Source of the DNA: a virus
Strand: one strand, 5' to 3'
Virus record (IMG/VR): IMGVR_UViG_3300049448_000712
DNA: 64,000 bases
This document shows, piece after piece, positions 1 through 50,419 of the stretch. Each line of letters starts with the position of its first letter. Positions within the stretch are counted from its first letter, which is position 1. The position numbers and the translations under genes were made by a program. The notes beneath the pieces were generated by a model. It had not been told where the DNA came from, did not search any database, and saw only the letters and a program-made list of their open reading frames with translations.

Positions 1-1061
1 AGGACCGCGGCGGGCAGAAGAAGGTCGAGAGCGCGCGACCGATGCTGCAGGACTGCCGCTGGTGCGGAGCTCGGCGAATCGACGCGCAGATCGGGCTCGA
101 GGCCTCCGTTGAGCTCTACGTGCAGCGGCTGGTCGAGGTGTTCCGCGAGCTGCGCCGCGTGCTCACGGACGATGGCACGCTGTGGCTCAACATCGGCGAT
201 AGCTACATCACCCGCCCTGGGCAGGGCACGCGTGGCCAGGCGACGAAGCAGTCGTCCACGCTCTCAGGGGGCGTGGGCAACGATGGCGGCAGCGAGCTCC
301 TTGGGCAGGTGCGAGGTGACCGAGACCCGAAGCAGAAGCCGGGTCTGCGCCGGGTCGGCCACCGACCGAACCGTGGAGGCGAGGCGCAGGGGCTCAAGCA
401 CAAGGATCTCATCGGTGTGCCCTGGCGCGTCGCGTTCGCGCTGCAGGCTGACGGCTGGTGGCTGCGCGATGACATCATTTGGGAGAAGCCGAATCCACTG
501 CCGGAGAGCGTGCGCGACAGGCCGACGCGGGCTCACGAGTACGTGTTCCTTCTCTCGAAGAGCCAGAACTACTTCTACGACGCCGATGCGATCAAAGAGC
601 CCGTCGCTGGCACAGCGAAACCGAGAGGAAAAGGTGTCCATCCGAAGGCGGGGAAGAACGAGGCCGTCGAGACCGCGACTGCCACATTGGGTACTAAGCA
701 CCATCGGCTTGAGGGCTTCAACGAGCGGTGGAACGTGCGAGCGAACGCTCGGTTCAGCGCATCGGTGACTGCGCTCGTCGAGAAGCGCAACCGCCGCGAC
801 GTGTGGCGCATCGCTAGCGAGCCGTACAAGGGCTCCCACTACGCCGTCATGCCCTCGAAGCTCGTCGAGCCGTGTGTGCTCGCGGGCTCGGCGACTGGCG
901 ACCTCGTGTTGGACCCGTTCTTCGGCAGCGGCACGGTGGGCGCGGTCGCCATGCGTCACGGTCGCAATTTCGTCGGCATCGATCTCGACCCGAAGAACGT
1001 GGAGCTCGCCAACGCACGCATCATCAGCGAGCTCGTCTCTCAGGAGAAGGCGAGCGCATGA
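1..1061 (+). CDS. DNA methyltransferase, N4/N6 (beta-class) family, 5' end outside window
   Basis: ORF 42..1061 has no in-frame stop upstream to base 1, so the gene likely starts outside the window. It has the LWLNIGDSY segment typical of the region after DPPY, and DPFFGSGT (FxGxG SAM-binding motif I) near the C-terminus. Confidence 0.7.
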   Translation, partial: DRGGQKKVESARPMLQDCRWCGARRIDAQIGLEASVELYVQRLVEVFRELRRVLTDDGTLWLNIGDSYITRPGQGTRGQATKQSSTLSGGVGNDGGSELLGQVRGDRDPKQKPGLRRVGHRPNRGGEAQGLKHKDLIGVPWRVAFALQADGWWLRDDIIWEKPNPLPESVRDRPTRAHEYVFLLSKSQNYFYDADAIKEPVAGTAKPRGKGVHPKAGKNEAVETATATLGTKHHRLEGFNERWNVRANARFSASVTALVEKRNRRDVWRIASEPYKGSHYAVMPSKLVEPCVLAGSATGDLVLDPFFGSGTVGAVAMRHGRNFVGIDLDPKNVELANARIISELVSQEKASA

Positions 1062-1474
1062 ACCGGTTCTTCGCCCTGCAGAAAATGGTCAAGAAAAAGC
1101 CGAAGGGCCGGCTCGAGAAGGACGTGCAGGCCGGCGTCATTGCGTATCTCGAAATGCGCACCGACTGCTGGAGTTGGCGTTCAAACACCGGAGGCGCGTT
1201 CTTCGGCAATTTCTTCGTGAAGTTCGGCAAGCGCGGAGCTCCCGACATCCACGGGCTGCAGGCCCCCGAGGGGCGCTTCTTCGTCGTTGAGTGCAAGCGG
1301 GAGGTCGGCGGCGGGCTCTCCGATGATCAGAAGGCCTGGCGCGACAATTTCGTCAATCACGGAGGCCTCTACATCGGCCCGGCTCGGTCAGTCGACGACG
1401 TGGTCGCAGGTCTGGGACCTGTGCGAGTTCACGTCGTGAAGATCCCGATGAGGAAGCGGGCCATCAGACGATGA
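1058..1474 (+). CDS. VRR-NUC domain nuclease (PD-(D/E)XK superfamily)
   Basis: ATG overlaps the upstream stop as ATGA. The segment APDIHGL...FFVVECKRE resembles the VRR-NUC catalytic core (D...E-x-K). Confidence 0.65.
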   Translation: MNRFFALQKMVKKKPKGRLEKDVQAGVIAYLEMRTDCWSWRSNTGGAFFGNFFVKFGKRGAPDIHGLQAPEGRFFVVECKREVGGGLSDDQKAWRDNFVNHGGLYIGPARSVDDVVAGLGPVRVHVVKIPMRKRAIRR

Positions 1475-2260: not shown

Positions 2261-2586
2261 GCGACACGAGCGGTCCGGGGCAGCCGGAAGAGCGAAAAAA
2301 CCTCCACGACGGCAGCGATCTCTGCTTTGAGCAGAAACAGCGCGCGAAGCAGGTCGAGCACGAGCTTCACAAGCTCGCCAACCGCCTTGAGCGGGACAAG
2401 GTCGCGAACATCTTTCACCTGCAGGTCTTCGCGTTCAACTGCGACGACAAGAAGCACGACAAGCCCCACACGCTGCATTTCGACTACGTCGCGGGCGGCG
2501 GACGGCTCGACGTGCCGAACAGCCTGCAGACCACCATCAAGGCGCTCGAGCATGCGCTGGCTCAACTCAAGAAGCAGGTCCAGTAG
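2257..2586 (+). CDS. hypothetical protein
   Basis: ORF with ATGA-type overlap with the upstream gene. Confidence 0.45.
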   Translation: MSDTSGPGQPEERKNLHDGSDLCFEQKQRAKQVEHELHKLANRLERDKVANIFHLQVFAFNCDDKKHDKPHTLHFDYVAGGGRLDVPNSLQTTIKALEHALAQLKKQVQ

Positions 2587-3278
2587 TGGAGTCACGACGT
2601 TGGTTCCACACCGAGGCGCAGGCCGAGGTCGCCTCGTTGGGCGGCTACGACGTGCTGTACTCAGATCCTTGCTGGAAGTACCGCGTGCAGGGCGGTCGTG
2701 GCGCAGCTGACAAGCAGTACAAGACGATGAGCCTGGCGGAGCTCTGCCTGCTGCCGGTGGAGAAGCTCGCGTCGGAGAACAGCGTGATGTTCATGTGGGG
2801 CGTCTTCCCGATGCTGTTCGAGGCCGGCGCGCTGATGAAGGCGTGGGGCTTCGAGTACCTGAACTGCGGCTTCATCTGGGTGAAGACGAACCCCATCTCG
2901 CCGACGCCGTTCGTCGGCATGGGGCACTGGACGCGCGGGAACGCCGAGTTTTGCTTGATGGGCAAGCGCGGAAAGCCGAAGCGGGTCGACGCGGCCGTGC
3001 AGCAGATCGTCGAAGACAACCTCGTCGTCGCGCCCGTGGCCGAGCACTCGGCGAAGCCGGCCGAGGTGCGCAACCGCATCACGCGCCTGATGGGAGATGA
3101 CGTGTCGCGGGCCGAGCTCTTCGCCCGAGAGCGTGTGCCCGGCTGGGATTTATGGGGGAATGAAGCACCGCAGTCCAACGTCGTTCTTTTGCCTGAAGGA
3201 GCACAGCATGGGAAAGCAATTGGTGTTCAACAAAGCGTCGGAGAAGGCCTCGGCATCGGAGCTCGCACCGTCGGCTGA
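2586..3278 (+). CDS. MT-A70 family DNA N6-adenine methyltransferase (putative)
   Basis: YSDPCW resembles the catalytic (D/N)PP(W/Y) motif, here non-canonical DPCW. EHSAKPAEV matches the EHSRKP signature of MT-A70 enzymes. The 3' end overlaps the next gene. Confidence 0.6.
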   Translation: MESRRWFHTEAQAEVASLGGYDVLYSDPCWKYRVQGGRGAADKQYKTMSLAELCLLPVEKLASENSVMFMWGVFPMLFEAGALMKAWGFEYLNCGFIWVKTNPISPTPFVGMGHWTRGNAEFCLMGKRGKPKRVDAAVQQIVEDNLVVAPVAEHSAKPAEVRNRITRLMGDDVSRAELFARERVPGWDLWGNEAPQSNVVLLPEGAQHGKAIGVQQSVGEGLGIGARTVG

Positions 3279-9087: not shown

Positions 9088-9290
9088 TCTGGCAGGAGCA
9101 GCAGTTGCGCGACGACAAATCGCCGCTACAACCGTGGGAGCAGAGACGTGAGCTCTTCCGAGAGATCGACATGCTCCGCGACTATCTCATGCGCATCCGT
9201 GACCAGGCTCAAAGCCATGTGGACGACAAGAACCCTGGCTGGGGTCGCTGGGCTACGACGCTACGGCTCGCCAAGGAAGCGCTCGAGTAA
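9084..9290 (+). CDS. hypothetical protein
   Basis: ORF overlapping thyX in operon style. Confidence 0.4.
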   Translation: MIWQEQQLRDDKSPLQPWEQRRELFREIDMLRDYLMRIRDQAQSHVDDKNPGWGRWATTLRLAKEALE

Positions 9291-14653: not shown

Positions 14654-15483
14654 GCGATACGACCGAGCTGTACTTGAGCCTGCTCAAGGAAGCGCTGATG
14701 GGCACGATCTACCGGGACCCACCCGTAGACCCGTGGAACGGCATCGTGAAGAACGACAAGGGCGAGGTGGTTAAGTGGGGCCGCGCGCCTGGGGTGCTGT
14801 CCATCGAAGCCGGGCCGTACAACGAGACGATGCGAGTCAAGGGTCTCGACTGGCCCGCCACTGCGCACACGATGATCGGACGACAGAGGCTCGGCGAGCT
14901 GGAGCGCGCGTGCATGGAGGTTCTGCGCGACGGCGTACCGGGCGACTTCGTGGAGACCGGTGTGTGGCGTGGTGGCGCGTGCATCTTCATGGCGGGGCTG
15001 CTGCGCGCGATGCAGTCACCTGACGACGTCCTACGCCGCGTCTTCGTATGTGACTCGTTCGAGGGCCTGCCTCCGCCGAACGTGCAGAAGTACCCGTACG
15101 ACAAGAACGACATCCACTACATGGTTGCGCCGCTCTTGGCTGTGAGCGTGGATCAGGTGCAGGACAATTTCAGGCGGTACGGCCTGCTCGACGAGCGCAT
15201 TGTTTTCGTCAAGGGCTGGTTCAAAGACACGCTGCCCGATCTCGACACGAACCACATTGCGCTGCTTCGGCTAGACGGCGACATGTACGAGAGCACGTGG
15301 GACGCGTTGACCGCGCTGTACTCGAGGGTCTCTCCAGGCGGATGCGTGGTCGTCGATGACTACAACGCAGTGAGAGGATGTCAGAAAGCGGTGCATGCTT
15401 TTCTGGACCAGATCGGCCTGAGTCCTTCCGTTCTTGAAGTGTTCGACAACGGCGGTGCCCATTGGAGAAAGAGCGCAACATGA
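14650..15483 (+). CDS. TylF/MycF-family (macrocin-type) O-methyltransferase
   Basis: ETGVWRGGACIFMAGLL...CDSFEGLP...GWFKDTLP...LLRLDGDMYESTWDAL...VSPGGCVVVDDY matches the TylF family core. GTG start overlaps the upstream TGA. Confidence 0.8.
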   Translation: MSDTTELYLSLLKEALMGTIYRDPPVDPWNGIVKNDKGEVVKWGRAPGVLSIEAGPYNETMRVKGLDWPATAHTMIGRQRLGELERACMEVLRDGVPGDFVETGVWRGGACIFMAGLLRAMQSPDDVLRRVFVCDSFEGLPPPNVQKYPYDKNDIHYMVAPLLAVSVDQVQDNFRRYGLLDERIVFVKGWFKDTLPDLDTNHIALLRLDGDMYESTWDALTALYSRVSPGGCVVVDDYNAVRGCQKAVHAFLDQIGLSPSVLEVFDNGGAHWRKSAT

Positions 15484-16835
15484 TCGAAGCATCGAAGCCG
15501 AACGAACCGTTGGTCGACATCGTGATGCTGGTGCACGACCAAGCGAGCTGGGCCGACCTGGCGATCCGCGCCGTCGAGCACCACACGAAGAACCGCTACC
15601 GGCTGATCATCGTCGACATGGCGAGTCAGGAGCAGAAGACGAAGAATCTGCTCATCACGGCGCAGAGCAACGGGCACACCGTCGTGTGGCTCAACGAGAA
15701 CCGCTCCTTCTCGAACGGCGTCAACGCGGGTGTGCGCGCTGGCAGCGCGAAGTACATCGTGCTCCTCAACGATGACGCGCTCGTGACCGAGGGCTGGGAC
15801 ACGGCGATGCTGCAGGACTGCAGCGAGAAGGGCGTGGGGCTCGTCGGAGCTCGCAGCAACTACGCCTCCGGCGCGCAGGGCGACCCGAGCTTCGTCGGCG
15901 AGCCGCCGTTCCTCGTCTTCGTCTGCGTGGGCCTGCGGCGCGAGGTCTGGAACCACGTCGGGCCGATGGACGAGGAGACCTTCGATGGCTTCAGCTCCGA
16001 AGACCTCGACTACTCCTGGCGGGTGAAGAAGGCCGACCTGCGGCTTAAGGTGAGCAACGCGTACGTGCTCCACGCCGGCAGCCGCACCATCGCGTCGAAG
16101 CACACGACGCCCGAGGCCCAGGAGCGCAACAACCGGAAGTACAACGAGCGGCTGGTGAAGAAATGGGGCGAGGAGTGGTGCCAGCAGAAGTTGAAGCTGA
16201 AGCCGAAGATCCTCGTCTGCTCGTTCCACGCGGAGGAGCACACCCGCGTCGCGTTCCTCGCGAACCTCGTGATGCTCCGTAAGACGGGCGGGCTGCCGTT
16301 CGACTACCACCAGATGACGCGCATGCACATTCAGGTGGCGCGGCAGCTCGTGTGCGATCTCGCGATCGACAACGACTACGACGCGCTGTTCATGCTGGAC
16401 GACGACGGCACGTTCCCGCCCGACACCCTCGCGCGGCTCTACCGGCACGACAAGGAATGCGTCACGGCGCTCGCCTACCAGCGCTTCCCGCCGTACCAGC
16501 CCTGCATCTTCGACACGAACGAGGAGGGCATGGGGCGCCCGGTGGAGGGCGTCGAGAGCACGGGCCTGCGCGAGATCGGGGCCTCGGGCCTGCACTGCGC
16601 GATGATCCGCGTTCCGCTCATCAAGCGTATGCGCGAGGCGAAGATCTCGCACTTCTTCGGCGGCTTCGAGAACAAGTTCGGCGAGGACATCGCCTTCAGT
16701 GCCAACGTGAAGAAGGTCAACGGGAAGATCTACTGCGACACCGACTTCATCGCCGGCCACATCGGCAGCCCCATCGTGGTGAACGACGCGTTCCGCAAAG
16801 ACTGGATCGCGCGCGGCCGGCCGGGGCTCGGATGA
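15480..16835 (+). CDS. two-domain family-2 glycosyltransferase
   Basis: N-terminal GT-A domain (DIVMLVHDQ...IIVDMAS...VLLNDDALVTEGW) and a second GT-A-like domain (FMLDDDGTFPPDTL). Confidence 0.75.
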   Translation: MIEASKPNEPLVDIVMLVHDQASWADLAIRAVEHHTKNRYRLIIVDMASQEQKTKNLLITAQSNGHTVVWLNENRSFSNGVNAGVRAGSAKYIVLLNDDALVTEGWDTAMLQDCSEKGVGLVGARSNYASGAQGDPSFVGEPPFLVFVCVGLRREVWNHVGPMDEETFDGFSSEDLDYSWRVKKADLRLKVSNAYVLHAGSRTIASKHTTPEAQERNNRKYNERLVKKWGEEWCQQKLKLKPKILVCSFHAEEHTRVAFLANLVMLRKTGGLPFDYHQMTRMHIQVARQLVCDLAIDNDYDALFMLDDDGTFPPDTLARLYRHDKECVTALAYQRFPPYQPCIFDTNEEGMGRPVEGVESTGLREIGASGLHCAMIRVPLIKRMREAKISHFFGGFENKFGEDIAFSANVKKVNGKIYCDTDFIAGHIGSPIVVNDAFRKDWIARGRPGLG

Positions 16836-17407
16836 CCACCGTCACGCACCACGACGCCGCCTTCTTCAAGGAGCTGCCCGAAGGCGTGTCGGCCGGCGAA
16901 TGGAGCTACGGCAACCTCCGGGCGCTTCGTCAAGCTGGACCGTGGAAGCGCACCGACATGCGTGTCGGCAAGTTCTGCTCATTGGGCATGGGCTTCTGCG
17001 CGCTGCTGGGCAGCGAGCACAACACCGATTGGGTGTCGACGTACCCGTTCGCTATTGCCGGCCTGAGCGAGCACATCGAGGGACACCCGAAGACGTTCGG
17101 CGACATCGAGATCGGCAACGACGTGTGGGTCGGCATGAACGTCACCGTGTTCTCCGGCACGCGCGTCGGCGATGGAGCTGTCATCGCAGCTGGCTCGTAC
17201 CTGCGCGGCGATGTGCCCCCCTACTCCATCTACGGCGGCAACCCGGCCCGGCTGCTCTCGTTCAGGTTCCGGCCTGAGGTGATCCAGCGCCTGCAGCAGA
17301 TCGCCTGGTGGAACTGGCCCCTCGAGCGCATCAAGAAAGCGGTGCCGCTGCTCAGCCAGAAGAAGGTGGAGCTCTTCATCGAAGCGGTTGAGCGAGGTGA
17401 GCTTTGA
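16832..17407 (+). CDS. hexapeptide-repeat acetyltransferase, Vat/CatB (xenobiotic acetyltransferase) type
   Basis: GKFCSLGMGFCALLGSEHNTDWVSTYPF and a left-handed beta-helix repeat segment. Confidence 0.75.
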   Translation: MTTVTHHDAAFFKELPEGVSAGEWSYGNLRALRQAGPWKRTDMRVGKFCSLGMGFCALLGSEHNTDWVSTYPFAIAGLSEHIEGHPKTFGDIEIGNDVWVGMNVTVFSGTRVGDGAVIAAGSYLRGDVPPYSIYGGNPARLLSFRFRPEVIQRLQQIAWWNWPLERIKKAVPLLSQKKVELFIEAVERGEL

Positions 17408-17628
17408 GCCCGGAAGACTTCGAGGAGCTCCAGGCGATCGTCGCCGAAGAGCTCGGCATCCCCTTTGAGGATTTGCGTACGACGACCGAGCTCGTCGGCG
17501 ACTCCCTGACGCTCACGGAGATCATTGTGCGCGTCGAGACGGAGTTCAGCATCCTCATCTCGGACGAAGAGTCGTCGAAGGTGAAGACGTTCATGGATCT
17601 GCACTCGCTGGTGGAGAGCAAGCGATGA
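17404..17628 (+). CDS. acyl/peptidyl carrier protein-like
   Basis: LVGDSLTLTEIIVRVETEF resembles the ACP DSL phosphopantetheine site in a four-helix context. TTG start overlaps the upstream stop. Confidence 0.5.
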   Translation: MSPEDFEELQAIVAEELGIPFEDLRTTTELVGDSLTLTEIIVRVETEFSILISDEESSKVKTFMDLHSLVESKR

Positions 17629-28774: not shown

Positions 28775-29898
28775 GGGGTCTCCTTCGTGCAGCTGCACTC
28801 CAACCAGTCGAAGTGGCCTCCGCCGATAGCGCCGCGCTTTAGAGGCTGGTTGCATCTCGCGCACGTCGGCGCGGTCGCCGATGGCGGGGGGAGGGCGCGA
28901 ATCATCCGCGCCAGACGCGCCCTTTCGGACCGTGGCTGAGCGCTATCGATTGCTTTCGCCGCCGCCTCTCGGCAGTCGAGCCAACTCGCGCACGTCGGCT
29001 CCAGCCGCACGCTCGCGAGACGTCCCTTGATGATGCCGCCGAGCGCCGGCTGGATTCGCGAGAAGTCACCGTTGAGAGCGTCGATGACACGCGCACGCTC
29101 TTCCTCGCGCACTCGCTCCTCGAATGCCGCTCGGGACTTGCGGAAGTCGTCTGGGGTCAGTGTTTGACCGGACGTCAGCGGCACGCATGTGCCGAACGCT
29201 TCGTCAAAGGCCGTGGCGGTCGCCCATCGCTCTTGCTCGCGCACCCGCTCCCGCTCCCGCTCGGCCTCCAGGGCGGCGCCGGTCTTGTGGTTGGCGAGGG
29301 CGGACTCGATGACCTCCAACTCCGCCGCGAGTAGACGCTCCCGGTCGATGCGTCGCAGCGCCCCCGCTAGAGCTTCGGCGTCGGCCTCGGCGGCGAGGGC
29401 GCGAGCCGTCCACGTGGCCAAGTCGCGACTCAGGTCGCCGATGTTGCCGACATTGAGGTAGGGGTTTCGATGCCAACCGCCCGGACACGCCGAGCCGCCG
29501 CCATCGGTCCATTGCAATTCGAGGCCGGCGCGTCGCAGTTCGGCCTCTATGCGGTCGGTCACCCACGCTTTACGCGCCACCTCGGACTTTGCGCGCTCGA
29601 CTGCCTCGTCCCTCTCCGCCGTCACCTTCGCTGCGTAGTGGGCATCGAGCTCGGCGCGGTCTCGAGCCGCTTTCGTCTCCGCCTTTGCGTGCTCGAGCTC
29701 GAGTGCGTGGCTCTTCTCCGCCTCGGCCGCGAGCGCCTTCACGCCTTGAAGCTGCAACCGGTAGCCATCGCGCTCTGACACGAGTTGCTCAATCGAGCCC
29801 ACCAGAAGATCACAGTCGATCGTCACCTCGCTGCCCATGGTTTGGGCTCGGAGTGCAGCGACCAGCAACTTCTCCACGTCCCACCGTTTCTTGCTCAC
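28771..29898 (-). CDS. coiled-coil hypothetical protein (375 aa)
   Basis: Long ORF, Ala/Glu/Arg-rich. Confidence 0.5.
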   Translation of the reverse strand: MSKKRWDVEKLLVAALRAQTMGSEVTIDCDLLVGSIEQLVSERDGYRLQLQGVKALAAEAEKSHALELEHAKAETKAARDRAELDAHYAAKVTAERDEAVERAKSEVARKAWVTDRIEAELRRAGLELQWTDGGGSACPGGWHRNPYLNVGNIGDLSRDLATWTARALAAEADAEALAGALRRIDRERLLAAELEVIESALANHKTGAALEAERERERVREQERWATATAFDEAFGTCVPLTSGQTLTPDDFRKSRAAFEERVREEERARVIDALNGDFSRIQPALGGIIKGRLASVRLEPTCASWLDCREAAAKAIDSAQPRSERARLARMIRALPPPSATAPTCARCNQPLKRGAIGGGHFDWLECSCTKETP

Positions 29899-30518
29899 TC
29901 GAGCTCCTTGACGATGCCCGCCATGACCCTCTGCCCTTCGACGAGCCGCTTGCCCACCACCTCGGCGTAGACCTGGGTGCTGCCAGGGTCCTTGTGTCCG
30001 AGCCAGTCCTGCACGAACACGAGGTCATCACCGCGCTCGAGCATGTGCGTCGCGACGGAGTGCTTGAGCACGTGGGGGTGCCCGTGGACGTTCAAGTCGA
30101 GGCCGGCGCGCTGAGCAGCTCGGCGCCAGTACCGGTACACGTTCCACCTGTCGAGCGGTGCTTTGGGCTCGTCGGGGTGAGGGAAGAGGTAGGGGCTCTT
30201 CGGCCGCTCTTTGACCCAGGCCTTCAAGTCGGCGAGCACCCACGGCTCGAGTTTGTAGGTCCGGCCCATGGAGCCTTTGAGCCGCAGCACGTCGAGCGTC
30301 CCGCGCTTGGTGTCGAAGTGCTCCAGCGGCTGCAGGCCGACCTCAGAGGCGCGCAGCGCGCAGTAGTACATGACCTTGATGATGCAGCGCTCCTCGAGCT
30401 CGAGCGTGCGTTCGATGGCCAGGCGCAGCTGCTCGACGGTGAGATAGCCCTTGCGGATGCGCCCCTTCGCGCTGCCGTCCTGGGTGCGGAGCTTCGGGTA
30501 GCTCTTAGGGGGCATCGG
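29895..30518 (-). CDS. tyrosine recombinase/integrase (short, catalytic-domain type)
   Basis: HVLKHSVATHMLERGDDLVFVQDWLGHKDPGSTQVYAEV matches box II of the tyrosine recombinase family (H..R..H...LGH......Y). Confidence 0.8.
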   Translation of the reverse strand, partial: PMPPKSYPKLRTQDGSAKGRIRKGYLTVEQLRLAIERTLELEERCIIKVMYYCALRASEVGLQPLEHFDTKRGTLDVLRLKGSMGRTYKLEPWVLADLKAWVKERPKSPYLFPHPDEPKAPLDRWNVYRYWRRAAQRAGLDLNVHGHPHVLKHSVATHMLERGDDLVFVQDWLGHKDPGSTQVYAEVVGKRLVEGQRVMAGIVKELE

Positions 30519-30792
30519 ACAGCATCTTTCCCAGCCATTCGGCTGCTTCCTTGGAGACTGAGCTGTCGCACCACCACTCGCCGTTCCTGGCCTCCAGAAT
30601 GAACAGCAGGCCTCGGCTCTCTGCACAGGTGAGCCCGAACGGCTCTACGAGGCACACGGTCGCCGCGATGTAGCCGAACATCGACGGCACGAGCACCCTC
30701 GTCCCCACCGCGAGCTCGATGATGGGCTTTCTACGCTCGGGGTCGAGCACGCGCGCGCCGCGCTGGCTGGTGAAGGTGAGCTCAGGGGGCAT
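30505..30792 (-). CDS. hypothetical protein
   Basis: ORF. Confidence 0.35.
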   Translation of the reverse strand: MPPELTFTSQRGARVLDPERRKPIIELAVGTRVLVPSMFGYIAATVCLVEPFGLTCAESRGLLFILEARNGEWWCDSSVSKEAAEWLGKMLSDAP

Positions 30793-36398: not shown

Positions 36399-37049
36399 AT
36401 GAGTTTCACCCTCGCGCCCATCTACCTCGACGACGCGCGCGAGCTCTGCGTGCGCTACCACGGGTACGCCTCGGCTGGCGGAGTCGCGGTCTACGCGTTC
36501 GGAGTTCACGAGGGCGGCCGGCTAGTCGCCGCGTACGCCTGGCAGCCCCCGCCACCAGGTGCAGCCTCCTCGGTCTGCCCTGAGGCGCCGTACGGAGTGC
36601 TCGCGCTGTCGCGCATGGTGGCGGTGCCGAAGGCGGAGCGGGCTCTCAAGCACGTGAGCAAGCCGCTCAAGTACCAGATGAAGCGGCTGATCGATCGCAC
36701 CCGCTGGCCCGTGCTGGTGACGTACAGCGACGAGGGCGAGGGGCACAACGGGTTCGTCTACCAGTGCAGCGGCTGGGAGAAGACGAACCGCGCCGAGGTG
36801 AAGGTCTTCGAGAAGGACGGCAAGCGCGCCTCGGCGTACTCCAACGGTGGCTTCGGGAAGCGCGAGCTGGACGCGGCGGGCAAGACTTGGGTACAGCGGT
36901 GGGAGAACTGGGTCTGCCCAAGGGGTGAGGCGAAGAAGTGGATGATGGAGGGCGGCTGGGAGCGCGTGGCGATCGAGGGGAAGGTGTGGCGCTCGGGCAA
37001 CCCGGCTCACACGCTCCGACGCAGGCCGAAGCAGATGACGTTGCTGTGA
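36399..37049 (+). CDS. hypothetical protein
   Basis: ORF. Confidence 0.45.
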   Translation: MSFTLAPIYLDDARELCVRYHGYASAGGVAVYAFGVHEGGRLVAAYAWQPPPPGAASSVCPEAPYGVLALSRMVAVPKAERALKHVSKPLKYQMKRLIDRTRWPVLVTYSDEGEGHNGFVYQCSGWEKTNRAEVKVFEKDGKRASAYSNGGFGKRELDAAGKTWVQRWENWVCPRGEAKKWMMEGGWERVAIEGKVWRSGNPAHTLRRRPKQMTLL

Positions 37050-37067: not shown

Positions 37068-37328
37068 GTGACGATTACGCATACTGATTTGGAAGACGCG
37101 GCGCTTCTGCTCCGAAACGAGATCAAAGACGTCGATGCCAGTCTGGAGCAGATCCTCGAGAAGATGCCCAGCGAGCGCACGCTCGTCGCTGCGTTGGCAC
37201 TCAACGGGCTACTGAGCGACATGAAGTTCGAGTCGGCTCCGACGGAGGCTGCGGACACGGCCGTCAAATACGCCGACGCGCTCCTGCGCCGGCTCGCGAA
37301 GCAACACCCGATGGAGGGCGCACCTTGA
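37068..37328 (+). CDS. hypothetical protein
   Basis: GTG start; RBS gagggaggaaaaac upstream. Confidence 0.4.
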   Translation: MTITHTDLEDAALLLRNEIKDVDASLEQILEKMPSERTLVAALALNGLLSDMKFESAPTEAADTAVKYADALLRRLAKQHPMEGAP

Positions 37329-37804
37329 AGCTCGAGCGCACGTACGAAGCAGAGGCAGCGCACCAACTCTCGGCCGGCGTCCCCGACGGCCACCCGTGCA
37401 AGCGGCTCCACGGGCACCGCTACGTCTTCACGGTGGGCATCGCGGGCGACATCGATCCCGCGACGGGGATGATTCTCGAGTACGCCGAGATCGACGCGGC
37501 GGTGCTCGATACGCTCGACTACGTCGACCACCGGTTCACCAACAGGCTCGGAGAGAACGTTCGCGTCGAGGGCAGCGCGCTCATATACGAGCCCATAGAA
37601 GGCAAGATGCTCATGGCCTTCGAGCAGGCCTCCAAGGTCCGTGAGAACAGCACCGTGGAGAACCTGGGCGTGTGGTTCGTGGCAGAGCTCAAGGCCCGCT
37701 TCAAGCGCCTGCACGCGGTCGGCAAGCGGGTGCCGCAGGTGACCTCGGTGAGCATCCAAGAAGACTCGCGCAGCGTGTTCGAGGTCTGGGTCGGCGAGCA
37801 TTGA
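37325..37804 (+). CDS. queD: 6-carboxy-5,6,7,8-tetrahydropterin synthase QueD (6-pyruvoyl-tetrahydropterin synthase family)
   Basis: CKRLHGH (Cx3HGH zinc/catalytic motif) plus a downstream Glu/Asp/His region, in a ~160-aa protein. Confidence 0.75.
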   Translation: MKLERTYEAEAAHQLSAGVPDGHPCKRLHGHRYVFTVGIAGDIDPATGMILEYAEIDAAVLDTLDYVDHRFTNRLGENVRVEGSALIYEPIEGKMLMAFEQASKVRENSTVENLGVWFVAELKARFKRLHAVGKRVPQVTSVSIQEDSRSVFEVWVGEH

Positions 37805-38457
37805 AGGTCTACGTCGGGCAAACCCGCTCGAGAGAGCTCGTCGCCCGGCTGACCGAGCTCGGCTGGGGGGAGATGACGCAGCCGAAGGAGGTGCCGCCTC
37901 GCCGGCGACCCTTCGTGCTCGACAACTACGCCTTCGCTTGCTTCAAGCAGGGCAAGCCGTGGGACGAGGCCACGTTCCTGCGTTCCATCGAGCAGCTGCG
38001 CGAGCGCCGGCTCAAACCCGACTTCGTCGTCGCGCCGGACATCGTCGCGGGCGGCTGGAGCTCGCTGGCCGTGTCGCTGTCCTGGCGGAGCCGTCTGCAG
38101 GGCTTCGCTCCGGTGTACCTCGCCGTGCAGGACGGCATGACCCTCGACGGGGTCTCTCCCCAGCTCCAGGCATTCGACGGGGTGTTCGTCGGCGGGAGCA
38201 AGGAGTGGAAGTTGACCTCGGGGTACTGGTGGGTGCAGGTTGCCCACGGGATGGGCAAGCCTTGCCACATCGGTCGCATCAGCGGCCGAGAGCACACGCG
38301 GCTCGCGAAGAGTTGGGGCGCCGACTCCATCGACTCCTGCGTGCCGCTGTGGAGCGAAGAGAATCGACAGGCTGTTGTACGAGGCCTGGCCGATCCTCCG
38401 GTAGACTTCGATCCGCCGTTCATCGAGCAGTTCCTCACGGGCTGGGAGGCCTTGTAA
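37801..38457 (+). CDS. tRNA-guanine transglycosylase-like protein (DpdA-type DNA-guanine transglycosylase candidate)
   Basis: VFVGGSKEW and IDSCVPLWS resemble the TGT (A/G)IGG and DCV.P motifs. It lacks the TGT zinc-binding C-terminus, as DpdA does, and its TTG start overlaps the queD stop. Confidence 0.45.
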   Translation: MKVYVGQTRSRELVARLTELGWGEMTQPKEVPPRRRPFVLDNYAFACFKQGKPWDEATFLRSIEQLRERRLKPDFVVAPDIVAGGWSSLAVSLSWRSRLQGFAPVYLAVQDGMTLDGVSPQLQAFDGVFVGGSKEWKLTSGYWWVQVAHGMGKPCHIGRISGREHTRLAKSWGADSIDSCVPLWSEENRQAVVRGLADPPVDFDPPFIEQFLTGWEAL

Positions 38458-38664
38458 ATGGCATCGCAAGCGAAGCTGATGGCGGAGTTCAGGAGCATCG
38501 CCGACGAGCTGCTGGAGCAGGGGTATGACCAAGCCCTCTCCAACATGCTCGACATGCTCGACGCCCTCTCCGGGGAGCATGGCGTCGACTTCTACACGCA
38601 CATCGCCGCGCGCGTCGATCCGCGCGCGGCGCCACACCTCCGTTACCCCGCCAAGAGAGGCTGA
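38458..38664 (+). CDS. hypothetical protein
   Basis: ORF. Confidence 0.4.
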   Translation: MASQAKLMAEFRSIADELLEQGYDQALSNMLDMLDALSGEHGVDFYTHIAARVDPRAAPHLRYPAKRG

Positions 38665-42044: not shown

Positions 42045-42602
42045 TCACGCGTGCGCGAAGAACAGCGGCTTGATGAGTAGGCCGAAGCCGTTCTGCAGCG
42101 AGCCCTGGTTGAACGTCGCCGCGCCAGCCTGGGCGATCTGCATCGGCGACGTCGCGATCGGCAGCACCAGCGCCACGTGGCCGTGTCCGCCTGGGTTGTA
42201 GTACGCGGCCACGACGACCTGGCCCTGCAGCGCGAGGGCCTGCGCGTCATCGGGAGAGCTCACCGCGTACCAGCCGTCAGCGCCCGAGGCCATGTAGCTG
42301 ATCTGGTTGTTCGCCAGCGTGTCGGCCGGCATCGGCACGCCCAGGTCGTCGAGCATCAGGTACAGCGCCTTGTTGCACCAGTCGGCGCCGCCGTTCGCGC
42401 CCGGCTGCAGGTCCGGGTTGTGGCCTGGGTCAACGACGGCGACCGCGTCCAGAATCGTCTGCGGATCTCTCTGGAAGACGCTGGGCGCTACCTCGTACGC
42501 GGCCGTCTTGATCTTGTTGACGAAGAACGCGATGGCAGCTGCGGCTCCGCCGACGCCGACGAGAGTGCCAACGGTGACCCATCCGCCTTTGCCCTTGCTC
42601 AT
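42045..42602 (-). CDS. membrane-anchored CHAP-like cysteine amidase/peptidase (putative peptidoglycan hydrolase)
   Basis: N-terminal TM VTVGTLVGVGGAAAAIAFFV. Candidate catalytic Cys (GGADWCNKALYL) and His (GGHGHVALVL). Paralog of 44560..45033. Confidence 0.45.
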   Translation of the reverse strand: MSKGKGGWVTVGTLVGVGGAAAAIAFFVNKIKTAAYEVAPSVFQRDPQTILDAVAVVDPGHNPDLQPGANGGADWCNKALYLMLDDLGVPMPADTLANNQISYMASGADGWYAVSSPDDAQALALQGQVVVAAYYNPGGHGHVALVLPIATSPMQIAQAGAATFNQGSLQNGFGLLIKPLFFAHA

Positions 42603-44559: not shown

Positions 44560-45033
44560 TCAGAGGTGCCAGAAGAAACGAACCGGCAGGTTCCCGAAGC
44601 CCTTCTCGAGCGGCGCATCGAGGTAGTTGTGCGCGCCGGCCTGCGTGATGTGCGGACGCAGCGTGCTCTCCGAGGGGACGACGAGCCCGATGTGGCTGTG
44701 CCCCTCGGGCGGGTTCTTCGAGTTGCGGTACGTGACGATGACCGGGTAGCCCTTGTTCGCGAAGGCGACCGCCTCACCGGAGCTGCACTCGCTCCAGCCG
44801 GCCGCCTCGCCTGCGTCGGAGGCCAGCCAGTCGATCTGCTGGTGCGCGAACCAGCCCGGCGTCGGGAACGGGACCTCGAGGTCTTCCAGCAACCCCTGCA
44901 CGTACAGGTTGCACCAGGTGGTGCCTGGAGCGGGGTGGTTGGGCGCATAGCGCGGCTCGCTCTCGACCTTCCGTGCCGCGACGAGCTCCTTTGTCTTTTC
45001 CGGGGATCTGACGCACTGCAGGGTGTCCGTCAT
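44560..45033 (-). CDS. CHAP-like cysteine amidase/peptidase paralog
   Basis: RBS AGGAG before the ATG. TTWCNLYVQ and EGHSHIGLVVP align with the Cys and His regions of 42045..42602. Confidence 0.45.
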   Translation of the reverse strand: MTDTLQCVRSPEKTKELVAARKVESEPRYAPNHPAPGTTWCNLYVQGLLEDLEVPFPTPGWFAHQQIDWLASDAGEAAGWSECSSGEAVAFANKGYPVIVTYRNSKNPPEGHSHIGLVVPSESTLRPHITQAGAHNYLDAPLEKGFGNLPVRFFWHL

Positions 45034-45060
45034 GTCGCAGTCTCCTGTTAGGCTCCCAGA

Positions 45061-45423
45061 GTGGCACGAATCCTCGTGGTTGACGACGACTTCTCCATCG
45101 CCCGCGTGCTCACCGAGCTCTTCGAGCGCTGGGGGCACGAGACGTTCATGTGCAGTGACGGCCTCGACGCTATCGCCACGCTTGAGGTGCGCCGGCCGGA
45201 TGCCGTCGTCACCGACTGGCAGATGGGTGAGGTCTCAGGCGTCGATGTGCTCGAGGTGGCACGCACGCGCGTACCCGACTGCAGGCGCATTCTCATCACC
45301 GCCTCGCCAACAGCTGACGAGGTCCGCGAGGCGGTGCGCTCGGGTGTCGCGGAGTACCTGATCGAGAAGCCGTGGAGCCTCGTCGACTTCAAGGTCGCTC
45401 TGCGCGGCCTTCCCGCCGACTGA
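45061..45423 (+). CDS. stand-alone response regulator receiver (REC/CheY-like) domain protein
   Basis: ILVVDDD, phosphoacceptor-region VVTDWQM and conserved Lys LIEKPW. GTG start. Confidence 0.7.
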   Translation: MARILVVDDDFSIARVLTELFERWGHETFMCSDGLDAIATLEVRRPDAVVTDWQMGEVSGVDVLEVARTRVPDCRRILITASPTADEVREAVRSGVAEYLIEKPWSLVDFKVALRGLPAD

Positions 45424-47813: not shown

Positions 47814-48971
47814 CTAGTAGCCGACCCACTCGCAGACGCCTGCGAACCCGACGTTGCCCGCGGTCGTCGCACCGGAGTCCGCTCCACTGCTGATCATGCC
47901 GCGCCAGATGAGCTGCTTCGTCGCCTGCGGCAGATCAGAGGCCAGCGTTCCGCCCGTCCACGTCGGGTTGACGCCCGAGCCGTTCGTGCGCGAGAGCAGC
48001 CAATGCACCACCGCCTCGTTCGGCGCCCCCCAGAACCAGCCATCGAAGGTGTACTCGACGCCACGGCACGTGAAGGGATCGCCGCCATCTGCCGGACCCA
48101 CGTCTACGCAGGTCGCCGTGCCAGCCGCGTCGTTGCTGCAGATCTGCAGATTCACCTGCGCAGCGATGTCATCACACCCGAAGTAGAAGGTGTTCGTCTG
48201 CGCGGAAGGCTGCACGGTGCCTGAAGGAGCACCGCTCGTATCTCCCCAGCCCATGTACATGGCCCACGCCGTCTTGCCGTCCCAGATGAGAGGCGACCAG
48301 CGCTCCCAAGCAACGAAGCCCAAACTCATCACCAAGGGCTCCTGTGAGGTCGTCTCGGTGATGCCGGTCCACGTGTTCACAGTCGACCCGAGCGCGTGGA
48401 ATGCGTGCCGGTGCTTGCGGATGTTGGACCCTGCGTCCCAGCCCGAGATGCCACCCGTCGCGCCGAACTGGTTGGTGTTGGTGTTGGTGCCAACGTTCAC
48501 CAGCAAGTTGCCGCCACCACCTGCAGTGCCGTCGGGGAAGTGGCACTCCATGTGAACCATGTCGGGCGTCGAGTAGACAGCGCCCTCGCCCGGCGTCAGA
48601 AACGACCAGGGCGTCGGCAGCGCAAGCACAGAGTCGATGCGCACCTGCGTCTGCGGCATCGACGCCTGTTGCGCGAAGTCGTATTCGAGGCTGCCACCAT
48701 CGGGCGGCGCGACCTCGGCGTACTCGGGCGCGTATCTCTCGTGCGTACCGTCGGAGGTCACGTTGGCGATGCCGCCGAACGTGCCGGCCTTGTTGTACTG
48801 CACCTCGGCGTTGGCGCCGCCTGGAGGGCCGCCATCACTGACGCCAGGGCCCGCCGTCGAGCCGTGCCGTGAGATGCGACCGTTCGCCTGCCCCGGCAGC
48901 GCCTGCGCGAGCGCGAACGCCGCAATGAGGAGCACACCCAGAAGCCACAATCTTCCTAGCGATAGACCCAT
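47814..48971 (-). CDS. secreted protein, paralog of the next gene
   Basis: Signal peptide MGLSLGRLWLLGVLLIAAFALAQALPGQANGRISRHG. The upstream ORF extension is Arg/His-rich junk. Confidence 0.5.
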   Translation of the reverse strand: MGLSLGRLWLLGVLLIAAFALAQALPGQANGRISRHGSTAGPGVSDGGPPGGANAEVQYNKAGTFGGIANVTSDGTHERYAPEYAEVAPPDGGSLEYDFAQQASMPQTQVRIDSVLALPTPWSFLTPGEGAVYSTPDMVHMECHFPDGTAGGGGNLLVNVGTNTNTNQFGATGGISGWDAGSNIRKHRHAFHALGSTVNTWTGITETTSQEPLVMSLGFVAWERWSPLIWDGKTAWAMYMGWGDTSGAPSGTVQPSAQTNTFYFGCDDIAAQVNLQICSNDAAGTATCVDVGPADGGDPFTCRGVEYTFDGWFWGAPNEAVVHWLLSRTNGSGVNPTWTGGTLASDLPQATKQLIWRGMISSGADSGATTAGNVGFAGVCEWVGY

Positions 48972-50419
48972 GAGATGTTCCCCAAGCTCACCGTGATGCA
49001 GTTGACATCGTTCACTCTGAGGTCGATGTCGTCGGCCGCCAATACCGTCGCAGTCGAGCACGCAACACGCGTGACGACGCCCGCCGCGACGTTGCAGGCG
49101 ATGTTGCCCGTGACGCAGAGCTGCGTGCCGCTCGACCTGTTGAAAGCCTCGACCGTGAACGTGTGCGCACCGTCCGCTCCGGCCTTCGTCGGAGTGAACG
49201 CGAGCGAGACGCCCGTCACGACGAGCCCCATCCGCGTCTCCATCACCACAGTACCGGTGCCGATGGTCTGCCCGTCGTAGTACGCGCTCATCGTCGAGGG
49301 CGCGATGAGGTTGAGCGAGTTCCGCGAGGTGACGACCTGCGCGTAGTCCGTGCCGTCGTGGTAGTACCAGTTGTGCGTGTCGACGGCGTAGCGCCAAGTC
49401 GACTCGAACGTCCCGAAGAAATACTGCCCCAGGCTCGTCGCGATGTTGGTCACGAGGGGCGGAAAATCCGCGCGCTGAAGTCCGCTGATGATGCCGAAGC
49501 CGGCCCAAGGGTCGATGAACCAGCTCGAAGCACCACCCACCAGCGGCGTGTTCTGGACCTGAACGATCAGACCGCCCTGGCGGTTCGCTGAAGGCACCAA
49601 CCCAATGTCTCCGTGCAGACCTCCGTAGTAGTAGTAGGTGCCTCCGTCCGAGAACTGGCCCACCCACGAGCCACCGTCGTACGGCGGCTTTCCACCATCC
49701 ACCATCACGGCGCTCACGTTGTCGCCAAGACGCCCTTGCAGCACGAGGTACTGCTCGGACGCGGCGCGCAGCGCTACAGCTCCGCTGCCTCGCCCCGAAG
49801 AGACCTCAAAGCTCGAGGCCGAATATTGGCTGCCTCCGAACACCGTGCCGTCGACCGTGATGCGAGCCACAGGCAGGCCGTTTTCGACTACGCCCAAAGC
49901 CACCGCCGTTCCGTCAGTGCCGGCCGGATTGCGATTGCCGTGAATCTCCCAATCGGCCCCCGGATCGCCAGCACCGCGGTTGCTCTGCGAGAACAGACCG
50001 GCGACTCCAACGGCGAACCAGTAGTCGCCGTATAAGATGTTCGCGCCGAGCACGAGATTGCCGTTGTTTACAAGCTGCTGTGTGCCGTCCCAATACGCGT
50101 ACTCGACGCCGCCCGCCTGCACCGACAGCACCTTGGCGTTCGACGTCGAGCGGGCGTTGGCCGAACCGATGATGATGTCGGGGAACCCGGTGTTGCCGGT
50201 TTGCGTGCCCAGCAGGTAGGTCGTCGTGTTCGAGTTCACCGACTCGATCAGAGGCGTCGAGACCTGCGACGCGACGAGGAGGCCACCGTCGAACCCAGAG
50301 CCTCCGCCTCCGATGCTCACCGCACGGCGTGAGACACGACCGTTACTCTGACCGGGCAGCGCCTGCGCGAGAACCACGCCGCCGACGACCAGCGCCAGAA
50401 GAACGAGGGCCGCGCGCAT
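48956..50419 (-). CDS. secreted protein (487 aa)
   Basis: Signal peptide MRAALVLLALVVGGVVLAQALPGQSNGRVSRRAVS; the mature N-terminus parallels 47814..48971. Confidence 0.5.
   Translation of the reverse strand: MRAALVLLALVVGGVVLAQALPGQSNGRVSRRAVSIGGGGSGFDGGLLVASQVSTPLIESVNSNTTTYLLGTQTGNTGFPDIIIGSANARSTSNAKVLSVQAGGVEYAYWDGTQQLVNNGNLVLGANILYGDYWFAVGVAGLFSQSNRGAGDPGADWEIHGNRNPAGTDGTAVALGVVENGLPVARITVDGTVFGGSQYSASSFEVSSGRGSGAVALRAASEQYLVLQGRLGDNVSAVMVDGGKPPYDGGSWVGQFSDGGTYYYYGGLHGDIGLVPSANRQGGLIVQVQNTPLVGGASSWFIDPWAGFGIISGLQRADFPPLVTNIATSLGQYFFGTFESTWRYAVDTHNWYYHDGTDYAQVVTSRNSLNLIAPSTMSAYYDGQTIGTGTVVMETRMGLVVTGVSLAFTPTKAGADGAHTFTVEAFNRSSGTQLCVTGNIACNVAAGVVTRVACSTATVLAADDIDLRVNDVNCITVSLGNISWVYR

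Follow-up and report, generated by a model that had tools for sequence, protein, structure and literature searches.

The 64,000-nucleotide stretch of viral DNA analyzed here (hereafter the window; IMG/VR record IMGVR_UViG_3300049448_000712) contains a tightly packed operon, of which a Mom-like gene is the first recognizable member. Its features are as follows:

36399..37049, + strand: Mom-like DNA (adenine) modification protein, 216 aa (PF25680 Mom; PHROG 1384, Mom-like)
37068..37328, + strand: orf86, 86 aa, no assigned function (from the ORF list and the sequence)
37325..37804, + strand: queD, 159 aa, TTG start (Pfam PTPS; CxxxHGH motif)
37801..38457, + strand: predicted minimal DpdA-like (TGT-superfamily) TIM-barrel protein, 218 aa, TTG start
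38458..38664, + strand: 68-aa ORF, no assigned function, its ATG directly following the TAA of the DpdA-like gene

The Mom-like product matches PF25680 above the Pfam cut-off (E = 8.9e-15); this gene, separated from queD only by orf86, was absent from the preliminary description. Pfam and PHROG matches of orf86 were at noise level only, and the 68-aa ORF had none in either collection. A counterpart of orf86 is called as a gene on contig L082, where the order Mom–orf86–QueD–mini-DpdA is identical. The stop codon of orf86 overlaps the start of queD in a TTGA (37325–37328), and the TTG start of the DpdA-like gene (37801–37803) and the TGA stop of queD (37802–37804) also overlap in a TTGA. The coordinates (queD, 37325–37804; next ORF, 37801–38457) confirm the second of these overlaps, which had been noted before, and the DpdA-like gene is translationally coupled to queD. 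Its TTG start at 37801 is supported because homologs begin with MKVYVGQTR at exactly this position. No match emerged when the region was compared by blastn with 50,697 phage records.

The assignment of queD by its Cx3HGH motif (PCKRLHGH) was borne out. The product matches Pfam PTPS (E = 3.5e-20; 72.6 bits against a cut-off of 22.4) and PHROG 2389 (QueD-like). Its score against the NCBIfam equivalog TIGR03367 (QueD) was 60.7 bits (E = 1.4e-16), below the cut-off of 89.25, probably because the protein carries an insertion of ~40 aa relative to a 120-aa QueD. The motif P24-C25-K-R-L-H29-G-H31 (CxxxHGH, with the catalytic Cys) is intact, and H13 (the third zinc His), the D68-H69 dyad and the C-terminal E146 align with those of other QueD proteins. 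These motifs are conserved in 13 of 13 QueD proteins from the loci of the mini-DpdA family, the name used here for the 218-aa protein and its relatives; 12 of them adjoin a family member, and the other is that of Arthrobacter phage Sonali, at ~3.7 kb. DpdL, a QueD paralog that decarboxylates CDG, carries LxxxHRHxF in place of CxxxHGH (PMC10516641). It was ruled out for the window protein, which reads CKRLHGH instead, and none of the 13 proteins is this variant, because all retain CxxxHGH. Judged by its motifs and its Pfam and PHROG matches, 37325..37804 encodes a genuine QueD, the predicted 6-carboxy-5,6,7,8-tetrahydropterin (CPH4) synthase.

FolE, QueE and QueC were not found in the 64-kb window, which is possibly only part of the genome. 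Pfam scanning of 93 of the 99 selected candidate ORFs, together with phmmer and hmmsearch over every six-frame ORF of 50 aa or longer, agreed with the preliminary description on this point. Three further ORFs of interest lie at the start of the window:

3..1061: N6_N4 DNA methylase (Pfam E = 3.4e-45)
2586..3278: MT-A70 methylase (Pfam E = 4.3e-26)
872..1474: ORF, VRR-NUC candidate (sub-threshold, 20.6 bits against a cut-off of 23.8)

Both DNA methyltransferases named earlier thus stand, whereas the VRR-NUC nuclease named with them does not reach its threshold.

The 218-aa ORF had been called TGT-like on account of two motifs, VFVGGSKEW (residues 128–136) and IDSCVPLWS (residues 177–185), and both Pfam (PF01702) and structure prediction had been suggested as ways to recognize the fold. 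Plain Pfam searching left the protein undetected: it matched no Pfam family, including PF01702, and no NCBIfam entry, and sequence and profile searches of the PDB gave noise only. DpdA1-type proteins likewise have no precomputed Pfam domain. Structure prediction, on the other hand, yielded an AlphaFold (AF2) model with a pLDDT of 95.9, a TIM barrel ((beta/alpha)8) resembling TGT, in which all conserved residues lie at the C-terminal ends of consecutive beta-strands. In Foldseek searches with this model, the top PDB matches were to Z. mobilis TGT (E ~5e-6), and nearly all named BFVD matches with E < 1e-2 were phage TGT or DpdA proteins, among them Sonali gp87, phiST DpdA3 (E = 1e-3) and nt-1 DpdA2 (E = 1.5e-3). 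Profile comparison using hhalign matched the family profile A3 with DpdA1-type phage DpdA at a probability of 95.8% (E = 7.3e-9), pairing DNGAF with DSGAF, PD with LD, Q110 with the DpdA His, GG with GG, H156 with His and DS with the nucleophile DS. In this alignment, the two motifs first recognized fall on the DpdA1 GG loop and on its motif with the nucleophile Asp. By way of DpdA1, the VFVGG and DSCVP segments align with the corresponding loop and Asp motifs of the TGT superfamily.

Among 95 diverse family members, 14 had weak, sub-threshold matches to Pfam TGT (PF01702; best E = 0.002) and no other Pfam family recurred; a weak TGT match was also the only recurrent one in NCBIfam. Pfam scans of ten longer proteins containing the domain, in a search for fusions, were uninformative. 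The model and the profiles together support placing the 218-aa ORF in the TGT/DpdA superfamily. It is improbable that the protein is a generic TIM barrel, or a decayed, inactive TGT relative beside which queD would serve alone as an auxiliary metabolic gene: the full set of TGT active-site residues is conserved across the ~3,000 clusters (at 50% identity) that make up the family, the hhalign match keeps these residues in register, TGT is the only recurrent Pfam match, and family genes are tightly coupled to Que genes on the same strand.

D41, D80 and D178 align with the corresponding DpdA1 Asp residues (hhalign), and G131-G132 aligns with the DpdA1 GG, the Gly-Gly loop after strand 6. F45, at D41+4, occupies the aromatic gate position within the family consensus DNGAF. 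D80, Q110, G132, H156 and D178 are invariant across the 95 members, and D41, G131 and K137 are each at least 90% conserved. The roles of the three active-site Asp residues (general acid/base, base-binding and nucleophile) have been described previously (PMC10164549). We propose from the alignment that D41 acts as general acid/base, F45 as gate, D80 and Q110 in base recognition and D178 as nucleophile, with G131-G132 as the loop and H156 as a further conserved site of the putative active site. The only Cys residues are at 47, 155 and 180 and the only His residues at 149, 156 and 165; owing to these few positions, a CxCxxC...H zinc site is absent, which confirms that the ORF lacks the zinc-binding C-terminus, as originally observed. 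Such a site is not universal in the superfamily, because it is absent from Cap10 and the DpdA1-type alignment has no invariant Cys and no evident conserved zinc site.

The family was then compared with the known phage enzymes. DpdA1, the type found in Enterobacteria phage 9g, Escherichia phage CAjan and Mycobacterium phage Rosebush, was represented by Sonali gp87 and phiG7_16. It shares with the 218-aa protein the TIM barrel, the same ordered motifs (D-x-G-A-F, x-D, GG, H-G and D-S) and a phage DNA-modification setting beside Que genes. However, the 218-aa protein is ~80 residues shorter, and Gln replaces the DpdA His. DpdA1 proteins reach only 12 bits with the family HMM, compared with 118 bits or more within DpdA1. 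Membership of DpdA1 was rejected in the reverse direction as well, since the DpdA1 HMM gives the mini-DpdA family at most 13 bits (5.5 bits for the member in Vibrio phage R29Z) compared with 118–432 bits for true DpdA1. Standard searches also miss DpdA2 (Vibrio phage nt-1, YP_008125322) and DpdA3 (Cellulophaga phage phiST, CGPG_00065), two divergent TGT-like phage proteins, neither of which has a significant HMM match to the family. DpdA2, which also lacks the DpdA His, was rejected because the 464-aa nt-1 protein is unmatched by the family HMMs. DpdA3 is also short and its STDSCFSVW locally resembles SIDSCVPLW of the 218-aa protein, but the family HMM gave ~1 bit and hhalign 3.6%, a weak test resting on a single DpdA3 sequence (phiST). 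DpdA4 (DUF6610, PF20314) matched neither the window protein nor its 95 relatives at E up to 10. The length of 218 aa, described at first as the size of phage DpdA, is below that of all three proteins measured (Sonali DpdA1, 296 aa; nt-1 DpdA2, 464 aa; phiST DpdA3, 259 aa). By these sequence comparisons, the 218-aa ORF belongs to a separate, smaller family, outside DpdA1, DpdA2, DpdA3 and DpdA4 as compared here.

This family is very common in metagenomic viruses. Besides bacterial phages, its carriers include contigs that have been assigned to archaeal genomes, and its members are frequently mis-annotated as 'ssDNA-binding protein' or 'DarB-like'. In GTDB genomes, the closest matches were short contigs placed in MAGs labelled Gemmatimonadota, Kofleriaceae and 'delta proteobacterium'. 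We surveyed ~6 kb around the gene in 78 other family loci. QueD was the commonest neighbor family, followed by DNA methylases, QueC and RecT: QueD abuts the family gene or lies one short gene away, on the same strand, in 11 of the 78 loci, and QueC abuts it in four and QueE in two. A Vut_1/YhhQ-type precursor transporter adjoins the gene in the cultured Roseobacter phage CRP-701. Among other cultured phages, Arthrobacter phage Aoka and Erythrobacter phage R6L also carry a family member, with no Que gene within 6 kb in R6L. The pairing of queD with the TGT-like gene is not due to chance, as it recurs in unrelated metagenomic phage contigs. In a reciprocal test, all three close relatives of the window QueD had an adjacent DpdA-type gene (two of the mini type and one DpdA1-type); precomputed Pfam lists contained no QueC, QueE or FolE within 10 kb of these three, or as far as the nearer contig end. 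No conserved partner gene was found across the family loci.

We therefore favor, with a probability of about 0.58, the reading that queD and the 218-aa gene together make up a module that modifies phage DNA with 7-deazaguanine. The DpdA/QueD interpretation put forward in the preliminary description is supported by the fold, the profile alignment and the Que and YhhQ-type neighbors. We infer that the protein is a transglycosylase, that it acts on DNA, that it inserts preQ0 and that the host supplies the remaining steps. In the proposed mechanism, QueD would convert dihydroneopterin triphosphate made by host FolE to CPH4, the first committed step to 7-deazaguanines, and preQ0 would presumably be completed by host QueE and QueC, so that the phage QueD would boost precursor supply and the host would complete it. 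The 218-aa stripped-down TGT/DpdA barrel would then swap guanine in DNA for the 7-deazaguanine base, with D41 as general acid/base and with D80, Q110 and the G131-G132 loop reading the 2-amino-6-oxo edge of the base. The expected outcome would be restriction-resistant DNA, beside the Mom-like gene and the two methylases of the same phage.

Several observations count against this module. The protein goes unrecognized by Pfam, NCBIfam and PADLOC at their thresholds, and the occurrence of family members beside DpdA1 in Sonali and R29Z, described below, is a further point against it. In about 60 of the 78 loci, the ~6 kb around the gene is free of Que genes. Annotation likewise places no Que gene within 6 kb of the family gene in cluster P mycobacteriophages, which infect M. 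smegmatis, a host that lacks the preQ0 pathway (PMC6884629). The bacterial DpdA of the S. Montevideo Dpd restriction-modification system (PDB 7UI4) has 413 aa rather than 218, four insertions, a CxCxxCx22H zinc site and a need for the DpdB ATPase, none of which is present here; the insertions and the zinc subdomain surround its DNA-binding face (PMC10164549), and their absence also speaks against the module. The published CAjan dpdA knockout, in which all dPreQ0 was lost, was considered as counter-evidence and found inapplicable, because CAjan has no mini-DpdA gene.

The protein could also be a base-exchange enzyme of the DpdA kind whose job differs from that of classical DpdA, which we consider rather unlikely. 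It may insert CDG, preQ1, ADG or an undescribed 7-deazaguanine derivative, may have another sequence specificity beside DpdA1, or may act on nucleotides before replication instead of on duplex DNA. Mini-DpdA coexists with DpdA1 in some phages: Sonali and R29Z carry it in addition to a DpdA1 gene (with QueC, QueD, QueE and FolE nearby in Sonali, and QueD and FolE in the examined stretch of R29Z), as do phiG7 and SHIN8, the only E. coli phages with the family gene. Its presence beside DpdA1 in Sonali and R29Z argues for a non-redundant role. In the same direction point the usual pairing of mini-DpdA with a single and varying pathway gene (QueD, QueC or QueE), compared with FolE, QueD, QueE and QueC together for DpdA1; the Gln where DpdA has His; W136-K137 after the GG loop, both invariant among close relatives (K137 at least 90% conserved in the diverse set); and the minimal barrel without the nucleic-acid-binding insertions of bacterial DpdA (PMC10164549). 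However, one QueD subfamily is paired with either mini-DpdA or DpdA1-type genes on different contigs, which suggests equivalent roles; every DpdA tested so far inserts preQ0 (PMC6884629, PMC10164549); and the sequence gives no pointer to a particular alternative base.

Bacterial TGT (Z. mobilis and E. coli, PF01702) provides the best PDB Foldseek matches and shares with the 218-aa protein a Gln at the Q203-equivalent position. The pair might be a tRNA module, in which QueD enlarges the pool of queuosine precursors in the host, and modification of host tRNA by the TGT-like enzyme improves translation of phage genes. The fold is indeed that of tRNA-guanine transglycosylases, and a queuosine boost in host tRNA has been proposed for phages with preQ0 genes but no recognized DpdA (Hutinet et al.; PMC6884629). 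We nevertheless regard this reading as very unlikely. The protein, ~160 residues shorter than bacterial TGT, lacks the N-terminal lid, the tRNA-binding extension, any C-terminal addition to the barrel, and the zinc subdomain, which in QTRT1 helps stabilize nucleic-acid binding (bioRxiv 10.1101/2025.04.06.647259). A tRNA scan of the window found no tRNA genes. Instead of translation genes, the neighborhood holds DNA methylases, Mom, RecT and DNA polymerase, a phage DNA-metabolism context that sets the family apart from bacterial TGT, and the nearest profile relatives are the DNA-modifying DpdA1 proteins.

A protein-directed TGT fold was also weighed. Cap10 of type IV CBASS (PDB 9NTN) acts on a deazaguanylated CD-NTase in a defense operon, and a comparable phage protein could be a counter-defense factor that binds or removes deazaguanine–protein conjugates. 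Cap10 lacks the zinc site and has H226 and D248 spaced by 22, as are H156 and D178 here (bioRxiv 10.1101/2025.04.06.647259), and the QueC-like gene directly upstream in four loci resembles the Cap9–Cap10 pairing. This too has little probability: no CD-NTase or Cap9-type partner appeared in the Pfam scan of the window, none of the 95 members had a PADLOC match to DpdA, Cap10 or CBASS or an NCBIfam match to DpdA or Cap10, the one adjacent QueC examined with Pfam gives a full-length match to the QueC profile (E = 2e-35), and QueD, the commonest partner, has no role in Cap9/Cap10 chemistry.

Modification with 7-deazaguanines shields phage DNA against restriction enzymes as well as Cas9. In a list compiled by Hutinet et al., 48 phages had genes of the preQ0 or G+ pathway without a recognized DpdA (PMC6884629), and a later paper filled part of this gap with DpdA3 and DpdA4. 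The mini-DpdA family is a further candidate for the inserting enzyme, one that is invisible to Pfam. It is a tentative suggestion that this family of ~200-aa proteins forms a fifth class of phage nucleic-acid transglycosylase, with a distinct function. If so, the base inserted may differ from preQ0, or the enzyme may work beside DpdA1 with its own sequence specificity; a single pathway gene encoded by the phage (QueD, QueC or QueE) or, alternatively, a YhhQ-type importer would suffice; and the reach of 7-deazaguanine-type DNA modification would greatly exceed that suggested by the published census of DpdA1 to DpdA4. The recurrent 'QueD only' arrangement raises the question of whether the first committed step is a bottleneck that phages relieve. 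If active, these proteins would be among the smallest TGT-fold transglycosylases compared here, more phages would be predicted to carry modified guanines, and the family would offer a compact tool for DNA base exchange.

The queD gene of the window lies in a tightly packed operon, two genes downstream of a Mom-like gene and directly upstream of the gene for the 218-aa TGT/DpdA-like protein (mini-DpdA).

36399-37049 (+): Mom-like gene (Pfam PF25680, E 8.9e-15), two genes 5' of queD
37068-37328 (+): orf86, an 86-aa ORF
37325-37804 (+): queD, 159 aa, TTG start at 37325, TGA stop at 37802-37804
37801-38457 (+): mini-DpdA, 218 aa, TTG start at 37801-37803

The arrangement claimed in the preliminary description, queD joined to the second ORF by a TTGA overlap, was found in the sequence at 37801-37804, and the orf86 stop and queD start overlap in the same four letters (37325-37328). 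Both queD and mini-DpdA start with TTG; for mini-DpdA this was confirmed by 75 homologues whose MKVYVGQTR N-terminus falls at the same position. A 68-aa ORF begins immediately past the TAA stop of mini-DpdA (TAAATG junction, 38455-38460); orf86, queD, mini-DpdA and this ORF are thus a translationally coupled series, separated from the Mom-like gene by 18 bp. The order Mom, orf86, QueD, mini-DpdA recurs on an independent metagenomic contig of 2.6 kb. At two other loci (L054 and L066) mini-DpdA likewise adjoins a Mom-like gene, and at a third (L005) the distance is 4.6 kb.

The QueD assignment, made earlier from CxxxHGH, was upheld by Pfam PTPS (E 3.5e-20) and PHROG 2389 ("QueD-like"). The match to the NCBIfam QueD equivalog (E 1.4e-16) fell under the strict cut-off, probably because of an insertion of ~40 residues. 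Besides the motif P-C25-K-R-L-H29-G-H31, the protein has a third zinc His (H13), a D68-H69 dyad and a C-terminal Glu (E146), and the catalytic Cys motif and all these residues align with their equivalents in 12 other QueD proteins from mini-DpdA family loci. DpdL, a CDG decarboxylase, is proposed to have LxxxHRHxF (PMC10516641); the window protein has CxxxHGH, the QueD form, instead, and the DpdL reading was rejected.

The two TGT-like motifs reported in the second ORF were located at residues 128-136 (VFVGGSKEW) and 177-185 (IDSCVPLWS). The only Cys residues are 47, 155 and 180 and the only His residues 149, 156 and 165; therefore, a CxCxxC...H zinc site is impossible, in line with the reported lack of a zinc-binding C-terminus. 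Pfam and NCBIfam scans gave no match for the window protein, including the suggested TGT family (PF01702), PDB sequence searches returned noise only, and the sole library match was PHROG 15826, "unknown function". Relatives are numerous, forming 403 clusters at 90% identity and, at 50% identity, 3,053 representatives at E <=1e-3 (2,220 of them at E <=1e-10). An AlphaFold2 model built from a 76-sequence alignment (pLDDT 95.9) showed an eight-stranded beta/alpha barrel. Its first Foldseek match in the PDB was the Z. mobilis tRNA-guanine transglycosylase (E about 5e-6), and nearly all named matches among predicted viral structures at E <1e-2 were phage TGT/DpdA, including Sonali gp87, phiST DpdA3 and nt-1 DpdA2; structure prediction thus yielded the TGT fold on which the earlier proposal depended. 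A 95-sequence family profile aligned by hhalign with a DpdA1-type profile over 149 columns (95.8% probability, E 7.3e-9); with the 76-sequence profile, which is less diverse, the probability was 64%. When the 95 members were scanned one by one, 14 matched TGT (PF01702) weakly, and every other Pfam family was matched by just one member.

The columns aligned between mini-DpdA and DpdA1 are the functional positions of TGT and bacterial DpdA (PMC10164549). By this alignment, D41 is the predicted general acid/base, F45, four residues on, the gate, D80 and Q110 the base-recognition residues, G131-G132 the Gly-Gly loop and D178 the nucleophile; H156 is also aligned. The Q110 position is Gln in mini-DpdA and bacterial TGT, whereas it is His in DpdA. 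Across the 95 diverse members, D80, Q110, G132, H156 and D178 are invariant, and conservation of D41 is 90% or higher; in the model, the aligned residues lie at the C-terminal ends of successive strands. The median pI of the family (8.4-8.8; DpdA1, 9.4) is mildly basic, which is compatible with nucleic-acid binding and proves nothing. Taken together, four lines of sequence and model evidence (structure, profile, Pfam recurrence and active site) placed mini-DpdA in the TGT/DpdA superfamily, as predicted.

The published phage DpdA subfamilies were then compared. The reference alignment seeded with Sonali gp87 is DpdA1-type; its HMM scores the "deazaguanosine inserting enzyme" of the CAjan-like phage phiG7 at 122 bits. 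This HMM gave mini-DpdA family members 13 bits or less; therefore, the family is only remotely related to DpdA1. DpdA2 from nt-1 (464 aa) was unmatched by the family HMMs, and phiST DpdA3 (259 aa, a single sequence) reached ~1 bit by HMM and 3.6% by hhalign, having just a local DSC..W motif in common with mini-DpdA. None of the 95 members scanned matched DpdA4 (Pfam DUF6610), and PADLOC models for DpdA and Cap10 gave no mini-DpdA match. The phage DpdA type proposed in the preliminary description must accordingly be revised: mini-DpdA falls outside DpdA1-DpdA4 by these comparisons, is not a classical phage DpdA, and belongs to a large, minimal, uncharacterised DpdA-like family. The SEA-PHAGES label "DpdA-like tRNA-guanine transglycosylase" is already on Sonali gp81, Aoka gp40 and GreaseLightnin gp55; our literature search found no paper on this short family or naming a fifth DpdA subfamily. 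GenBank labels two members "ssDNA-binding protein" (Roseobacter phage CRP-701) and "DarB-like antirestriction protein" (Erythrobacter phage ZS04), both mislabels.

The neighbourhoods of mini-DpdA were evaluated at 78 further loci (Sonali, Erythrobacter phage R6L, five close-homologue contigs, 52 IMG/VR and 19 GTDB contigs) by running queries for QueC, QueD, QueE and FolE, together with iterated HMMs, against every six-frame ORF. QueD lay on the same strand, adjoining or one short gene off, at 11 of the 78 loci, and QueC and QueE adjoined mini-DpdA at four and two; the majority had no nearby Que gene in this search. Unsupervised clustering also ranked QueD as the most frequent neighbour family (12 loci, counting the window), followed by N6/N4 methylase (8), C5 methylase (7), QueC (5) and RecT (5), although some loci are near-duplicates and these counts are not independent events. 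Sonali carries all four pathway genes and DpdA1 within 5 kb. In the cultured phage CRP-701 (3959-5084), a transporter of the Vut_1/YhhQ family, that of the preQ0 importer, lies directly 3' of mini-DpdA, and one metagenomic locus showed a weak match of this type. Reciprocally, three close relatives of the window QueD on long contigs each have a DpdA-type gene beside them: a mini-type gene adjoining it (L089), a mini-type gene ~600 bp 3', read in two frames and possibly split (L090), and a 238-aa protein scoring 82 bits with the DpdA1 HMM (L088, which also has a Mom-like gene nearby). That the same QueD subfamily stands beside either type argues that both do the same kind of job. QueC, QueE and FolE were absent from the precomputed Pfam lists of these contigs within 10 kb or to the nearer contig end; the pairing of QueD with a transglycosylase and nothing more therefore recurs as a design.

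Other carriers call for caution. In cluster P mycobacteriophages, the 6 kb around mini-DpdA contain no annotated Que gene, and M. smegmatis is without the preQ0 pathway (PMC6884629). Both mini-DpdA and DpdA1 occur in Sonali, in Vibrio phage R29Z and in the E. coli phages phiG7 and SHIN8.

Sonali, 5965-6582 and 8952-9842: the DpdA1-type and mini-DpdA pair, near QueC, QueD, QueE and FolE
R29Z, 1800-2750 and 3929-4513: the DpdA1-type and mini-DpdA pair, near QueD and FolE in the stretch fetched

In phiG7 (4941-5533) and SHIN8, both Seuratvirus, mini-DpdA is split in two (in phiG7, overlapping ORFs phiG7_20 and phiG7_21, just 5' of the DNA polymerase gene), which may reflect either a frameshift or a pseudogene; this stretch is absent from all other E. 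coli phage records. The co-occurrence indicates that mini-DpdA and DpdA1 are probably non-redundant and suggests a distinct role for mini-DpdA, e.g. a different base, target motif or substrate form. Homologues were also observed on seven GTDB archaeal MAG contigs (L063, L064, L065, L068, L073, L076 and L078) assigned to Methanomethylophilaceae, Methanogranum (including a 1.59-Mb chromosome), Thermoplasmatota and Methanocaldococcaceae, which may be archaeal proviruses.

Consistent with the preliminary description, QueC, QueE and FolE were found in the window neither by Pfam (93 of 99 selected candidate ORFs) nor by phmmer/HMM (all ORFs >=50 aa); the genome may extend beyond it. The two DNA methylases also reported were recovered by Pfam, but the VRR-NUC nuclease stayed below threshold.

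872-1474 (+): VRR-NUC-like ORF (20.6 bits, Pfam threshold 23.8; E 4.7e-4)
7939-9087 (+): ThyX thymidylate synthase (Pfam Thy1, E 2e-40)
9792-10769 (+): dNMP kinase (Pfam DNMK, E 3.4e-9)
29895-30626 (-): tyrosine integrase (Pfam Phage_integrase, E 1.6e-27)

The integrase indicates that the phage is probably temperate. A tRNA scan found no tRNA genes in the window, and no nucleotide-level relatives were found among 50,697 phage records. Three genes in a row at about 15462-17628 (+) make up a cassette for sugar or acyl modification; their products are a glycosyltransferase of family 2, an acyltransferase with hexapeptide repeats and a small protein resembling an acyl carrier (PP-binding match weak, E 2e-4). 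A receiver-only response regulator gene (45061-45423, +), unusual phage cargo, is flanked by ~190-aa paralogues (42045-42602 and 44560-45138, both -; 35% identity, E 5e-19) that had no Pfam match. Two adjoining long ORFs at 47814-50419 (-) with near-identical N-terminal starts (…ALPGQ(A/S)NGR(I/V)SR…) seem to encode paralogous proteins of the fibre or surface type.

The genes, the fold, the conservation of residues aligned with catalytic and base-binding positions of TGT/DpdA and the association with 7-deazaguanine genes are established. The fold, profile alignment and Que-gene neighbours support the 7-deazaguanine DNA-modification reading as a predicted activity. QueD would channel dihydroneopterin triphosphate of the host towards 7-deazaguanines, and host QueE and QueC would finish preQ0. 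Mini-DpdA, with DNA as its putative substrate, would swap guanine in phage DNA for preQ0; the covalent intermediate would be linked to D178, and D41 would serve as acid/base. At present the finding is moderately interesting; its interest would be high should the mini-DpdA family prove active or turn out to insert a different base.
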